Assembly (NCBI GenBank): GCA_963786805.1
Contig: CAWBAK010000004.1
Coordinates: forward strand, 242,043 to 306,042
DNA: 64,000 nucleotides
Direction: 5' to 3'
From: an uncultured Actinomycetes bacterium
GTDB lineage: Bacteria > Actinomycetota > UBA4738 > HRBIN12
The position numbers and the translations under genes are program-made. Shown here in pieces: positions 36,185-60,877 of this stretch; the stretch's first letter is position 1, and each line of letters begins with the position of its first letter. The notes below the pieces were generated by a model. That model had not been told where the DNA came from and made no database searches. It saw only the letters and a program-made list of their open reading frames with translations.

Positions 36185-36218
36185 GAAGGGGCGCCTTGCG
36201 GCGCCCCTTCTGCTTTCG
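36185..36218. terminator. Bidirectional intrinsic terminator hairpin (11-bp perfect GC-rich stem)
   Basis: GAAGGGGCGCC-ttgc-GGCGCCCCTTC is followed by TGCTTTCG on the + strand. It is placed between the 3' end of the small membrane ORF (+) and the 3' end of tRNA-Met (-). Confidence 0.5.
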
Positions 36219-36292
36219 TCGCGGGGACGGGATTTGAACCCGTGACCTCTGGGTTATGAGCCCAGCGAGCTACCGGACTGCTCCACCCCGCA
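36219..36292 (-). tRNA. tRNA-Met (anticodon CAT), initiator-like
   Basis: The reverse complement TGCGGGGTGGAGCAGTCCGGTAGCTCGCTGGGCTCATAACCCAGAGGTCACGGGTTCAAATCCCGTCCCCGCGA gives a cloverleaf. The anticodon loop is CTCATAA. It has three consecutive G-C pairs in the anticodon stem (GGG/CCC) and a weak 1:72 pair, as in bacterial tRNA-fMet. It is near-identical in its core to the mycobacterial initiator tRNA. Confidence 0.85.
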
Positions 36293-50727: not shown

Positions 50728-51753
50728 CTAGTCGGAGCGGTTCATCACGCGACCCAGCGCCTTCGCGAGCAGCTCGAGCTCGCGGCCGAGATCGAGCATC
50801 TCATCGGGCGTCAGGGCCTGCGGGCCGTCGCAGAGCGCGCTCTCCGGATCGGGGTGCACGTCGATCATGACCGCGTCGGCGCCGGCGGCGATCGCCGCGC
50901 GCGCCATCGGCGCCACGAGTGACTTCTTCCCCACCGCGTGCGAGGGGTCAACGATCACCGGAAGGTGGGATTCGGCCTGGGCGACGGCCATCCCTGCGAG
51001 GTCGAGCGTGTTGCGCGTCGAAGGCTCGAACGTGCGGATCCCGCGCTCGCACAGGATGATCTCGGAGTTCCCGCGCTGGGCGACGTACTCGGCCGCCTGG
51101 AGCCACTCGTCGATCGTCATCGCGAGGCCGCGCTTCAGCATCACCGGCTTGCGGGCGAGCCCGACCTCCTTGAGGAGCTCGAAGTTCTGCGCGTTCCGCG
51201 TGCCGACGCGGATGCAGTCGGCGACCTCCGCGACGAGCTCGACCTGTGAGACGTCGACGACCTCGACGACGATCGGCAGTCCCGTCTGTCTCCGGCACTC
51301 CTGGAGGATGTCCAGTCCGCGTTCGCCCATCCCCTGGAACGAGTAGGGCGAGGTCCGAGGCTTGTAGACGTCGCCTCGCAGGATCGTCGCGCCGGCGGCC
51401 TTCGCGGCCTTCGTCGAGATCAGCGCCTGCTCGTCGCTCTCGACGGCGCACGGCCCGGCGATGATCGTGAAGCTTCCTCGGCCGACCGGCGTCGCCCCGA
51501 CGTTCACGGTCGTGGGCACCGGATGCAGGTCCGCGGCGACCATCTTGTAGGGCTTGCCGATCTGGATGACGTGGTCGACGCCGGGCATCTGCTTCCAGTC
51601 GAAGGCCTGGAACCGCTCCGTGTCGCCGACGAGGCCGATGATGGTGTGGACGGTCCCGTGCGAGACGAAGGCCTCGCCTCCGGCGGCGCGGACGCGCTCG
51701 GCGACGGCCTCGATGTCGGCCGGTGTCGCCTCCCGTCTCATCACCACGACCAT
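50728..51753 (-). CDS. aroG: 3-deoxy-7-phosphoheptulonate (DAHP) synthase, type I-beta with N-terminal ferredoxin/ACT-like regulatory domain
   Basis: 341 aa. The N-terminal roughly 70-aa regulatory domain is followed by the KDSA/DAHPS TIM barrel (...[10 protein letters not shown]...[13 protein letters not shown]...[11 protein letters not shown]...). A strong SD AAGGAGCGGAGG precedes the ATG. Confidence 0.9.
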
Positions 51754-51780
51754 CGGTCTGCCTCCGCTCCTTGGGACCGC

Positions 51781-51816
51781 CCGAGAGACGAAGAACCCCG
51801 GGCTCCGGGCCCGGGG
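51781..51816 (-). terminator. Intrinsic terminator / attenuator in the aroG leader (GC hairpin CCCCGGGC-uccgg-GCCCGGGG followed by a U-rich tract)
   Basis: On the minus strand the hairpin at 51816..51796 is followed by UUCUUCGUCUCUCGG (51795..51781). It is located between the leader-peptide stop (51843) and the aroG SD. See finding. Confidence 0.55.
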
Positions 51817-51842
51817 TCGTCTTCTGCCTTGCGGCTCAGGCG

Positions 51843-51896
51843 ACTACGCCGGGCCCGGCCCGCCGTAGAACCACCCGAAACCGAAGGATGCCTGCA
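51843..51896 (-). CDS. Putative aromatic-amino-acid leader peptide (17 aa: MQASFGFGWFYGGPGPA)
   Basis: ATG at 51896, stop TAG at 51845..51843. The peptide has Phe-Gly-Phe-Gly-Trp-Phe-Tyr in 7 consecutive codons. It is immediately followed by a terminator hairpin and then the DAHP synthase gene. The 3' codons (GGCGGGCCGGGCCCGGCG) can pair alternatively with the 5' arm of the terminator. Confidence 0.5.
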
Positions 51897-51999
51897 TCGG
51901 ACCGCCATGGTGCCAGCGAACGACGGGCCTGGCAACCACCCCGAGGCGGCTCGGCACGCTCGATCGCGCGCGGGCAGGCGCCGACCCGCGAGGGTTACG

Positions 52000-52626
52000 A
52001 TGCGCGGCGTGTCCGTCACGATCGTCGATCACCCACTCGCCGGGCACCTGCTGACGCAGCTGCGGGACCAGGACACGGCGCCGCCGGTGTTCCGAACGCT
52101 GGCCAAACGCCTCGCGCTGGCGCTCGCGCTCGAGGCGATCCGCGATCTGCCCACGACCGAAGTCGAGGTGCAGGGCCCGCTGGAGCGTGCGAAGGGGCGG
52201 ATCCTGGGCGACCTCGTCGCGGTCCCGATCCTTCGTGCCGGCCTCGGGATGCTCGAGGCGGTCACCGAACTGTTCCCCGAGGTGGCCGTCGGCTACATCG
52301 GGCTCGAGCGCGACGAGGCGTCCCTGCAACCGCAGTCGTACTACCGGAAGCTCCCCCAGGTCGCCGGACGGCACGTCCTCGTCCTGGACCCGATGCTCGC
52401 GACGGGCGGATCGGGTTCGGCGGCGACCGCCGCCGTCCGCGAGGGCGACCCGGCCTCGATCCGGTTCGTCTGCGTCGTCTCGGCGCCCGAGGGCATCGCG
52501 AGGATGGAGGCCGACCACCCGGACGTGCCGATCTTCACCGCCGCCGTCGACCGGCAGCTGAACGAGCACGGCTACATCCTGCCCGGGCTGGGCGACTTCG
52601 GCGATCGGCTGTTCGGGACCGAGTAG
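52000..52626 (+). CDS. upp: Uracil phosphoribosyltransferase
   Basis: 208 aa with the PRPP-binding motif ...VLVLDPMLATGGS.... The start is at ATG 52000. The upstream part of the track ORF is junk. Confidence 0.9.
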   Translation: MRGVSVTIVDHPLAGHLLTQLRDQDTAPPVFRTLAKRLALALALEAIRDLPTTEVEVQGPLERAKGRILGDLVAVPILRAGLGMLEAVTELFPEVAVGYIGLERDEASLQPQSYYRKLPQVAGRHVLVLDPMLATGGSGSAATAAVREGDPASIRFVCVVSAPEGIARMEADHPDVPIFTAAVDRQLNEHGYILPGLGDFGDRLFGTE

Positions 52627-52656
52627 AGGCGGAACCGCGCGGACCGGACAGCGACG

Positions 52657-53632
52657 TCAGGAGCCGCCCGCGCCCTCGTAGGCCCGTCCAGCCGCTTCCG
52701 GCGGGCGCACCCGCCCGACGAATCCGGCGATCGCCACGATCGTGACGACGTACGGGATCATCCGGATGAACTGGGGTGGCAACGCGGAGATCACCGGCGC
52801 GTTGTTCAGGCGCAAAGGGATCGCAAACGTGAAGCCGAAGAGCCACGCGAAGAACATCAGGCGGACCGGATTCCAGTTCGACAGGATCAGCGCGGCGAGG
52901 GCGATGAAGCCGAGAAAGAGCGTCTGGCCCTCCCGCCAGTTGCCGATCACCTCCGACGCGAGGAAGGCACCGGACATCCCGGCGAACGCCCCGGACAGCA
53001 TGACTCCCTGATACCGGTAGACGGAAACGCTCACGCCGAGCGAACGCGTCGCCTCGGGGTTCTCGCCGCACGACCGGAGACGAAGACCCCAGCGCAGCCT
53101 GTTCAGCGCGAACCACACGGGGACCACCATCAACGCCGCGATGAGCACCACGGGGGATAACCCTTGGAACGCCCGCCCGAGCCCGCTCGGCAGCGACGAC
53201 AGCCCGGGGATGTCCAGGCGGTCCAGGTGCGGTCCGCCGGGGTCGGACTGCGTCGACTGGCCGTCGAAGAACGCGGACGAAAGGAACCGCGCCAAGCCCA
53301 CAGCCACCAGGTTGATCACCACGCCCGACACGATGTGGTCGACCCGGAACGAGATCGTCGCCAGCGCGTGAACGCCCGCGAACAGGGCACCGCAGAACGC
53401 GCCGAACAGCAAGCCGAGCGAGTGGTCCCCAAGGCAGGCCGAGCTCCAACGAGTCGGTGAAGAACCGCGCCCCGAACGCCCCGGTGACCGTTCCGATGAT
53501 CATCAGGCCTTCGAGGCCGATGTTGACGATGCCCGAGCGTTCGCTGAACAGACCGCCGAGGCCGGTCAGATAGAGGATGGTGAAGTAGGTGAACGAGATC
53601 TGGACGGCCACGGCGATGTCGGTGAAGGGCAT
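52657..53632 (-). pseudogene. Nucleoside ABC transporter permease (BMP-system YufQ/NupC-like), frameshifted near 53422
   Basis: N-terminal frame: MPFTDIAVAVQISFTYFTILYLTGLGGLFSERSGIVNIGLEGLMIIGTVTGAFGARFFTDSLELGLPWGP. Downstream frame: SLGLLFGAFCGALFAGVHALATISFRVDHIVSGVVINLVAVG.... Removal of a c (ccaCtcg) rejoins them. Confidence 0.75.
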
Positions 53633-60159: not shown

Positions 60160-60877
60160 ATGGCCGGAACCCTCTATCTGGGAACGTCGGGCTTCGCCTA
60201 CGACGAGTGGAAGCACGGCGTCTTCTACCCCGAGGGGCTGAAGAACCGCGAGATGCTCTCGTACTACGCGAGCCGGTTCCCCTCGGTCGAGATCAACTAC
60301 ACGTTCCGGCGCTTCCCGACCGAGAAGTCCATGGAAACGTGGAAGAGCCGAGACGCCGGAGGGGTTCCGGTTCACGCTCAAGGCGAACCAACGCATCACG
60401 CACTTCAAGACGGCTGCGCCGACGTGGACGAGGACGTCCGGGACTTCCTGGATCGCGCGAGGCTGCTCGGCGACCGGCTCGGGACGATCCTGTACCAGTG
60501 TCCTCCCACGCTGCAGTACGACCGGGCGCTGATCGAGGCGTTCGTCGGGTACCTGCCTCCGCAGCCGACGGCGGCGATGGAGTTCCGGCACCCCTCGTGG
60601 ATCGAGGCGAAGGAGCTGCTGTCCGAGCAGGGCATCGCCTGGTGCGTCGCCGAGACCGACGAGAAGGATCCCGGGCCCGAACGACCTGTCGTGGGAGCCG
60701 TTCGGGTTCCTCCGTCTGCGCAAGACGGAGTACGACGACGACGAGCTGTCCGCCTGGGCCGAACGCATCCGTCCCGTCCTCGACTCCGGCAACGACGTCT
60801 ACTGCTACTTCAAGCACGAGGACGAGGGCCACAGCACGAAGATGGCCGACCGCCTGCGCGCGACGCTCGCCGGCTAG
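60160..60877 (+). pseudogene. DUF72 family protein, with four single-base insertions (three within about 70 nt)
   Basis: Frame 1: MAGTLYLGTSGFAYDEWKHGVFYPEGLKNREMLSYYASRFPSVEINYTFRRFPTEKSMETWKSR. Then TPEGFRFTLKANQRITHFK in frame +1, about 5 codons in frame +2, then back to DVDEDVRDFLDRARLLGDRLGTILYQCPPTLQYDRALIEAFVGYLPP...EFRHPSWIEAKELLSEQGIAWCVAETDEKD. A fourth shift at about 60671 leads to ...PGPNDLSWEPFGFLRLRKTEYDDDELSAWAERIRPVLDSGNDVYCYFKHEDEGHSTKMADRLRATLAG*. Confidence 0.7.

Follow-up and report, generated by a model that had tools for sequence, protein, structure and literature searches.

In Corynebacterium glutamicum, the aroF gene for 3-deoxy-7-phosphoheptulonate synthase (DAHP synthase, or DAHPS) is preceded by the aroR leader, a short open reading frame (ORF) with clustered aromatic codons, and stalling in aroR raises transcription (Neshat et al. 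2014, J Biotechnol 190:55; as presented in PMC4046766 and PMC11802643). The leader is described as carrying Phe-Tyr-Phe without Trp (PMC4046766), and read-through is reported to increase upon limitation for Phe but not for Tyr (PMC11802643). Here, we describe an element directly upstream of a DAHPS gene in the genome of an uncultured Actinomycetes bacterium (UBA4738; HRBIN12), located in a stretch of 64,000 nt (assembly GCA_963786805.1, contig CAWBAK010000004.1, positions 242,043–306,042) that was analysed as a whole and is hereafter called the window. Judged from its sequence and from folding models, the element is very probably a ribosome-mediated attenuator of a type I-beta DAHPS that responds to aromatic aminoacyl-tRNA. 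All testable defining features of the leader-peptide attenuator class are present, and the in silico case consists of a conserved ORF, three alternative helices, covariation, a position-dependent switch and an exclusive linkage to DAHPS. An earlier interpretation of the same DNA (the sequence-only reading) had proposed such an attenuator and had named the Corynebacterium leader as its precedent; its observation is confirmed, its interpretation is supported, and the precedent exists (PMC4046766, PMC11802643).

Judged by its published description, the aroR–aroF pair is the closest precedent. The present leaders differ from aroR in having 3–8 aromatic codons, in including Trp in 77 per cent of cases and in holding their stop codon inside a helix. 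They also come from a different, uncultured lineage and precede a type I-beta DAHPS, whereas C. glutamicum AroF (cg1129) is presumably of type I-alpha.

With the trpL and pheL leaders of Escherichia coli (Rfam Trp_leader and Phe_leader), the element shares an architecture of four segments, in which 1:2 is the anti-antiterminator, 2:3 the antiterminator and 3:4 the terminator, and in which the regulatory codons lie in or just before segment 1. In contrast to those leaders, it has no sequence or structure match in Rfam, its leader lacks a Shine-Dalgarno sequence and is apparently leaderless, and its stop codon lies inside segment 2, where it is base-paired (GUAG:CUAC). Its regulatory codons are a mix for three amino acids instead of a run for one, and the gene that follows encodes the entry enzyme of the common pathway instead of a terminal branch enzyme.

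Among high-GC relatives, the Streptomyces leaders (trpL, leuL, ilvL, and others) are similar in having 12–29 codons, a start at or near the 5' end of the transcript, hairpins, and often weak U-tracts (PMC8079986). None of the eight S. lividans leaders belongs to the common aromatic pathway (PMC8079986), and in the present case a leaderless status is suggested by promoter spacing. The common aromatic pathway does not appear among the attenuators listed in comparative and transcriptomic surveys of actinobacteria (PMC1262725, PMC8079986); in the searchable literature, we found no DAHPS leader peptide other than aroR.

The leader ORF and its conservation

The core of the element consists of the following features:

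51844..51897, minus strand: leader ORF of 17 codons plus TAG (ATG 51897..51895, TAG 51846..51844), peptide MQASFGFGWFYGGPGPA; read from the sequence and conserved in orthologues
51865..51885, minus strand: regulatory aromatic block, codons 5–11 (F G F G W F Y); from sequence, orthologue conservation and masked folding
51858..51877, minus strand: region 1, the 5' strand of the 1:2 (anti-antiterminator) hairpin, CGGGUGGUUCUACGGCGGGC; from minimum free energy folds and pair conservation
51837..51854, minus strand: region 2, GCCCGGCG-UAG-UCGCCUG (the last three codons, the stop, and the 7 nt after it), with an invariant CCCGG core; from folds and covariation
51816..51796, minus strand: predicted terminator hairpin (regions 3 and 4), CCCCGGGC-CCGGA-GCCCGGGG, a perfect 8-bp GC stem
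51795..51784, minus strand: T-rich tail TTCTTCGTCTCT, an imperfect U-tract; from sequence and the T content of orthologues

The leader contains F5, F7, W9, F10, and Y11, so that five of its 17 codons are aromatic and all five fall inside seven codons, as had been claimed for this ORF. Such clustering is exceptional in the window. Among 177 short ATG-initiated ORFs (10–30 codons, both strands), the maximum number of aromatics per seven codons is at most two in 175, three in one, and five in the leader ORF, which is thus the only one with more than three. Because the G+C content of the window is 66–71 per cent, aromatic codons are scarce outside genes. Only two places in the 64 kb combine a perfect 8-bp hairpin with 5 or more T in the next 10 nt, and a terminator scan of 51000..52800 found one site against 0.2 expected. 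The sequence-only reading had assigned the element to 51781–51900. The features it named are found there, but the full unit is larger and adds conserved promoter-like −35 and −10 hexamers. The perfect GC hairpin and the U-rich run it described are likewise present, but the loop on the coding strand is CCGGA, and the UCCGG it gave is the plus-strand reading. The hairpin begins 27 nt past the leader stop and lies, with its tail, approximately 40 nt ahead of the DAHPS gene.

In a scan of one genome per species, we identified 47 loci whose DAHPS is 72–98 per cent identical to that of the window, all of them in uncultured Actinomycetota metagenome-assembled genomes (MAGs). At this level of identity (at least 72 per cent), the element is found at the same place upstream of DAHPS in 47 of 47 loci. 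Each has an ATG-initiated ORF of 16–21 codons (mostly 16–17) that packs 3–6 aromatics into seven codons and ends in P-[A/G/E]-stop; a CCCCGGG...CCCGGGG hairpin with a T-rich tail comes after it. A covariance model built from 48 sequences (R1; 119 positions, 24 pairs) scores the window copy at 101 bits and recovers the 21-codon leader variant of one locus (L044) at 69 bits. With R1, no second copy of the element was found in the window; a 15.5-bit match at 60422..60547 was rejected as an extra copy, as it lies inside long ORFs and has neither leader nor terminator. At more distant DAHPS loci (identity of 58 per cent or less; Acidimicrobiia, Frankiales, and others), the element was not found. 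Between these two sets stands an uncultured Actinomycetes locus with a DAHPS 59 per cent identical (L049:2322-2470), where a divergent 26-codon leader, MATRSGWFCVFYGAGRRPAGTRLQRT, precedes the same CCCCGGGC...GCCCGGGG terminator; R1 gives this variant only 16.6 bits, on the sense strand.

A pattern derived from the most conserved block matched at least 120 metagenome loci. Among the matches listed, 82 of 120 have a DAHPS start 100–130 nt downstream, five are on contigs that are too short, and 33 lack an aromatic ORF. We rejected these 33, which have no DAHPS, no aromatic ORF and no R1 match, as real elements, and because the covariance model found nothing in them we attribute them to chance. 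Pooling the genome loci with the listed metagenome matches gave at least 129 loci, with at least 118 distinct sequences and at least 107 distinct peptides, so the predicted conservation of a short ORF with clustered aromatic codons in related actinobacterial DAHPS upstream regions is borne out. Wherever the contig permits the check, the element lies directly upstream of DAHPS.

Among the 118 pooled leaders, Phe is present in all, Tyr in 117, and Trp in 91, and the mean number of aromatic codons is 5.1 (range 3–8). No alignment column varies within the ATG or at the TA of the stop codon, and 117 of 118 leaders end in TAG. Except for one of 21 codons, all ORFs have a length of 16, 17 or 18 codons, so that every insertion or deletion amounts to whole codons. 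In the 96 leaders of seventeen codons, positions 4, 5, and 7–11 are aromatic in 48–95 per cent, with a core of W8 (73 per cent), F9 (82 per cent), and Y11 (83 per cent). At the aromatic positions F, Y, and W interchange freely, and the synonyms TTC/TTT and GGC/GGT occur. The C-terminal codons, by contrast, are fixed even at synonymous sites (GGG in 35 of 38, CCG in 38 of 38), which indicates that the peptide tail is set by RNA pairing and not by peptide function. Together, synonymous fixation and free swapping of F, Y, and W fit selection on codon class and RNA structure instead of on the peptide product.

A search of 51400..52300 against Rfam at E ≤10 returned only noise (e.g. HOXB13-AS1 and a Gammaretrovirus signal) and no relevant family; in particular, there was no covariance-model match to the amino-acid leader families, T-box or riboswitches. 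In the whole window, the gathering score was reached by two tRNAs only. From their sequences, the pooled elements constitute a new predicted cis-regulatory RNA family with more than 100 members in uncultured actinobacteria, unannotated and without an Rfam entry.

Predicted alternative helices and position-dependent switch

Region 2 has two potential partners, region 1 and the 5' arm of the terminator. The unconstrained fold consists of two hairpins, the 1:2 hairpin and the terminator. In the 1:2 hairpin, the end of the aromatic block together with codons 12–14 (CUAC-G-G-CGGGC) pairs with codons 15–17 and the stop (GCCCG-G-CGUAG), and the helix is extended by a contact between GG(U) of codon 8 and (G)CC of the post-stop TCGCC. 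In the antiterminator, GCCCGG of codons 15–17 pairs with CCGGGC of the terminator 5' arm, in a helix of approximately 14 pairs in the window. This is the complementarity between the last codons of the ORF and the terminator arm that the sequence-only reading had noticed; it appears in ribosome-masked folds and has the support of covariation.

In the 48-sequence alignment, the upper stem of the 1:2 hairpin (CUAC:GUAG and CGGGC:GCCCG) is 85–100 per cent paired and includes one compensatory pair (GC in 27, UG in 12, UA in 2). The contact between codon 8 and the post-stop CC is held in 47 of 48 sequences, and because of it codon 8 varies in its first base only (TGG, CGG, GGG). The terminator stem has seven invariant G-C pairs and an eighth that is CG in 23 and UA in 7 sequences; a flanking pair is A-U in 33 and G-C in 7, a compensatory change that stretches the stem into the tail. 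When the partners were slid by 1–3 columns, pairing fell from approximately 75 per cent to 30–54 per cent for both structures. RNAalifold applied to the trimmed alignment gave a fragmentary consensus, because some rows have the 3' arm shifted by one column, and structures were mapped from the window fold instead.

The base that follows CCCCGGG in the terminator 5' arm partners both with one base of the 3' arm and with the leader base just 5' of CCCGG. It is U in 20 pooled sequences, of which 18 have A and 2 have G as the leader partner, and 16 have A and 4 have G as the partner in the 3' arm; both helices are thus paired in 20 of 20. With C at this base, G is found as the leader partner in 73 sequences. 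The U–A association has a Fisher P-value of approximately 4e-10 when shared ancestry is ignored, and the 20 sequences span several distinct peptide groups. The covarying leader base also determines residue 15, which is Asp (GAC) or Gly (GGC). This three-way covariation provides a clean example, from nature, of alternative RNA helices.

To place a ribosome on the leader, we masked a footprint from −15 to +12 relative to the A-site at each codon of a transcript that begins 2 nt ahead of the ATG and stops where the 3' arm ends, and calculated the pairing probability between the terminator arms. The total paired probability of the 5' arm is uninformative, as this palindromic arm pairs with itself, and was replaced by partner-specific probabilities. 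In the window, the probability of the terminator is 1.00 without a ribosome, 0.98–1.00 with the A-site at codons 2–4, 0.85 at F5, and 0.51 at G6; it is at most 0.02 at F7, G8, W9, and F10, at least 0.95 from Y11 to the end of the sense codons, and 0.64 on the stop. The antiterminator is thus predicted when the ribosome stalls on aromatic codons, and the terminator when there is no ribosome or when the ribosome has moved past codons 11–12. Mutually exclusive terminator and antiterminator structures, which the sequence-only reading had anticipated, therefore appear in masked folds of both the window and its orthologues, and its proposal that a ribosome at or near the stop codon allows the terminator to form agrees with the folds.

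The orthologues behave similarly. In 38 seventeen-codon orthologues, the mean terminator probability is lowest (0.23–0.26) at codons 7–8 and is at least 0.95 from codon 12 onward. Moving the edge of the footprint by 3 nt in either direction shifts this profile by one codon, and the permissive window coincides with the aromatic block either way. Without a ribosome, the terminator probability is at least 0.8 in 32 of these 38, consistent with sequestration of region 2 by region 1 in the model. At equilibrium, the terminator is lost at some aromatic codon in 69 per cent of leaders, compared to 15 per cent after shuffling of the sequence that follows the aromatic block (highest single replicate, 27 per cent). 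The complete three-state behaviour is displayed by 27 of 48 leaders, and the others keep the terminator at equilibrium. In transcripts of these other leaders cut before the 3' arm, the 5' arm is mostly paired upstream, a weaker measure given that the palindromic arm pairs with itself.

Putative promoter, DAHPS gene, and neighbourhood

Upstream and downstream of the core, the locus has these features:

51935..51930, minus strand: −35-like hexamer TTGCCA, part of a putative promoter; from the alignment
51912..51907, minus strand: −10-like hexamer CACCAT (cAnnAT, often with TGn before it), which ends 9 nt before the leader ATG; from the alignment
51765..51761, minus strand: Shine-Dalgarno sequence GGAGG of DAHPS; from the sequence
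50728..51753, minus strand: DAHPS gene, type I-beta, 341 aa with an N-terminal extension of approximately 70 residues, ATG at 51753; from profile and PDB matches

In the 48 aligned orthologues, TTGnCA is invariant and is followed 17–18 nt later by cAnnAT, in which A37, A40, and T41 are invariant. Across the pooled set, 114 of 116 leaders have an nAnnAT hexamer whose end is 7–11 nt (mode 9) from the ATG, with variable bases in between. All 114 leaders with this hexamer have TTGnCn upstream of it, at a distance of 17 nt in 65, 18 nt in 48, and 19 nt in one. If these hexamers form the promoter, the transcript would start within a few nucleotides of the leader ATG. Because the −10-like hexamer lies only 7–11 nt before the ATG, there is no room for a Shine-Dalgarno sequence of the leader, and we infer a leaderless or near-leaderless start. 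Leaders of this kind have been described in actinobacteria: all eight attenuator leaders of Streptomyces lividans are leaderless (PMC8079986), and the ilvB leader of C. glutamicum is translated without a ribosome-binding site (Morbach 2000, as cited in PMC4046766).

The enzyme matches 3-deoxy-7-phosphoheptulonate synthase profiles (NF006421, 453 bits; TIGR01361 over residues 73–322), and its residues 1–337, including the N-terminal stretch of approximately 70 residues, align over the full length to PDB 1rzm/3pg9 (E = 5e-99). We take these structures to be the DAHPS of Thermotoga maritima, in which the N-terminal extension is presumably an allosteric regulatory domain that binds Tyr or Phe. The gene had been labelled aroG; it does encode a DAHPS, but the match to 1rzm/3pg9 places it in the type I-beta class and not with the AroG type of E. 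coli.

The DAHPS gene starts 90 nt past the stop codon of the leader, a direct upstream placement that resembles that of aroR. On its other side, the element is flanked by a uracil phosphoribosyltransferase gene (upp) on the plus strand, divergent from DAHPS. Although upp is the usual neighbour in the orthologues, the leader stays at DAHPS where upp is absent (L016, L022, and L026) or farther away (L006 and L019), and the gene downstream of DAHPS differs among orthologous loci; the element is therefore dedicated to DAHPS. An assignment to upp was rejected on the same grounds, as well as on the orientation of ORF, promoter, and terminator, all of which point toward DAHPS. We also rejected the hairpin as a terminator of an upstream gene: since upp (plus strand) and DAHPS (minus strand) diverge, no upstream gene reads into it.

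Several further sequence features were observed in this region. A (G)TTCGAC(C) direct repeat occurs in two to three copies in one subclade (L016, L023, L026, L027, L032, L037, L042, L043, and L045). Its copies fall in the stretch that separates the terminator from the start of DAHPS: in the T-tract, in the spacer, and just after the DAHPS Shine-Dalgarno sequence. An A-rich run, AGAAGACGA, precedes the attenuator hairpin, which gives the plus strand a T-rich tail, TCGTCTTCTG, after the hairpin (51796..51825); no plus-strand gene reads into the hairpin, and the run probably just extends the stem via A-U pairing. A conserved C[CT]GGG box lies 3' of the T-rich tail in 87 of 118 distinct leaders, 9–14 nt after the terminator 3' arm in orthologues (CGGGCGG at 51777..51783, minus strand, in the window). 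Pairing of this box with the 3' arm could turn the T-tract into a loop, but the box is transcribed too late to influence the termination decision. Elsewhere in the window, a perfect GC-rich hairpin with a GGGGCGCC / GGCGCCCC core (36186..36215) has T-rich tails on both strands and adjoins a tRNA gene (36219..36292, minus strand); by its sequence, it looks like a bidirectional terminator.

Proposed mechanism, competing explanations, and significance

The attenuator that we infer would connect transcription start, translation of the ORF, termination, and amino acid supply as follows. Transcription would start at the conserved promoter a few nucleotides before the leader ATG, and the 17-codon ORF would be translated without a Shine-Dalgarno sequence. 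With charged Phe-, Tyr-, and Trp-tRNA plentiful, the ribosome would pass the aromatic block and reach the TAG, where it would cover region 2 (GCCCGGCG-UAG), or region 1 would pair with region 2 again after its release. With region 2 thus occupied, regions 3 and 4 would form the CCCCGGGC/GCCCGGGG hairpin, and RNA polymerase would terminate in the T-rich tail before DAHPS. Should any of the aromatic aminoacyl-tRNAs become scarce, the ribosome would stall on approximately codons 5–11 and cover region 1, region 2 would pair with the terminator 5' arm as the antiterminator, and polymerase would read into DAHPS. In the absence of translation, the 1:2 hairpin would form, making termination the default.

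A number of observations weigh against this interpretation. Its main weakness is the tail, which is T-rich for the genome yet interrupted: in the window, only UU directly follows the stem, and C and G break the remaining tract. The −10-like hexamer begins with C and not T, and a simple sigma-70 promoter scan made no call. The cores of the helices are invariant, so that covariation is carried by a few flanking pairs, with statistics that ignore phylogeny. The equilibrium model yields no antiterminator in approximately 30 per cent of orthologues, and in 6 of 38 the ribosome-free transcript fails to favour the terminator. The 23 per cent of leaders that lack Trp have CGG or GGG as codon 8, with its GG kept in place by RNA pairing. 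Finally, all host organisms are uncultured.

The interrupted tail bears most directly on a reading in which the leader-peptide sensor is the same but acts on something other than intrinsic termination: ribosome position would instead govern Rho loading, the stability of the RNA or DAHPS translation, and the hairpin would be a pause site or structural element. The loose description of aroR as a 'translational regulatory leader peptide' in a review-type source (PMC7356990) also points this way. We nevertheless consider such an output unlikely. The GC stem and T-rich tail between the leader ORF and DAHPS, a defining feature of the attenuator class, are conserved as a unit, with a mean of 5.5 T in the 10 nt after the stem (118 pooled leaders) in spite of the high G+C content, and the A-U/G-C compensatory pair prolongs the stem into the tail. 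The Shine-Dalgarno sequence of DAHPS is sequestered no more than in shuffled sequences (unpaired probability 0.39 versus 0.34; P-value = 0.33), and for this reason we rejected a second, translational layer in which the pyrimidine-rich tail or the C[CT]GGG box would sequester it. Translational coupling and reinitiation are unlikely because the leader stop is approximately 90 nt from the DAHPS start.

Could the ORF instead encode a functional micropeptide, with the hairpin merely as its terminator and with aromatics that serve the peptide and not tRNA sensing? The conserved pattern xxF-G-F-W-F-x-Y-x-G-x-x-P-A speaks for such a product, but the C-terminal residues are fixed synonymously by RNA pairing, residue 15 (Asp/Gly) tracks a terminator base, and the aromatic positions swap F, Y, and W and shift freely. 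Moreover, the 3' end of the ORF is complementary to the terminator arm well above the shuffled expectation, and the element is strictly tied to the first gene of the aromatic pathway. We therefore hold this explanation to be very improbable. A nascent-peptide sensor similar to TnaC seems just as implausible. In it, a W...G-x-x-P-A/G-stop peptide would stall the ribosome at the TAG upon binding of a free aromatic amino acid, keeping region 2 covered and enforcing termination; the near-invariant P-[A/G]-TAG ending, the frequency of Trp and the preference for the terminator with a ribosome on the stop codon are compatible with it, but the conserved bases are already explained by the helices (GUAG with CUAC; CCCGG with GGG or the terminator arm), Trp is missing from almost a quarter of the leaders (23 per cent), and the data do not need this mechanism. 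We give next to no credence to a ligand- or protein-binding RNA or a DNA operator (a repressor inverted repeat) with an incidental ORF: in its favour are the perfect, palindrome-rich inverted repeat of the hairpin and the recurrence of CCCGGG-like boxes, but 51400..52300 has no Rfam match, the ATG, frame, whole-codon indels, and aromatic enrichment are conserved, and the loop varies by several nucleotides in length while compensatory changes keep the stem, which argues for RNA instead of a fixed-spacing operator. These last three explanations are unlikely, as they leave features of the ORF unexplained and invoke conserved bases that the helices already explain.

Returning to the attenuator, we speculate that the leaderless 17-codon leader acts as a three-input OR gate. 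The codons of W8-F9-x-Y11 (one for Trp, one or two for Phe, and one for Tyr) would lie exactly where a stalled ribosome frees the antiterminator, and a shortage of any one aromatic amino acid would open the common pathway. Repeated origins of leader attenuation of type I-beta DAHPS in lineages other than Actinomycetota (candidates L063 and L075) are the second part of this combined idea, which we put forward only tentatively. If true, it would point to a widespread and unrecognised control of entry into the shikimate pathway.

The first of the two candidates (L063:1263-1477; JADFWI010000588.1) comes from a low-GC MAG labelled Proteobacteria with a type I-beta DAHPS 52 per cent identical to that of the window. 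Upstream of this gene lies an aromatic leader, MGIFYFGYYYWFFGPVGPGRVRRTRQ, that appears to be independent; behind it come a 13-bp terminator (GCCGTGGGCAGGC / GCCTGCCCGCGGC + TTTCTTGTTT) and another hairpin, which has a T-tract. The equilibrium ribosome-mask model gave no antiterminator for this leader; GCCCAGGGC within it could form 8 of 9 pairs with the terminator arm. The second (L075; CAYWNO010000041.1) is an AT-rich contig binned as Methanosarcinales, an archaeal placement that makes the case odd, with a DAHPS match at 2501 that is 47 per cent identical to the DAHPS of the window. Approximately 100–175 nt upstream of this match, a short ORF, MVNIGFAFYNWFSNFNYFFFYFKY, with 12 of 24 residues aromatic precedes a long hairpin rich in A/U; this arrangement may be another element of the leader type or an effect of composition.

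The mechanism itself is a textbook one with an actinobacterial precedent, and its current understanding is unchanged by this locus. Within the searchable literature, the element would be only the second instance of ribosome-mediated attenuation that acts on entry into the common aromatic pathway and not on a terminal branch, and it extends the short list of leader-peptide attenuators in Actinomycetota by a well-defined, previously unannotated candidate cis-regulatory RNA. At approximately 150 nt, the promoter–leader–terminator cassette is compact and could be used in high-GC hosts as a part that responds to aromatic amino acids. Combined with an N-terminal domain of the enzyme that presumably binds Tyr or Phe, the leader suggests that DAHPS may be subject to feedback at two levels in a common, uncultured soil lineage.

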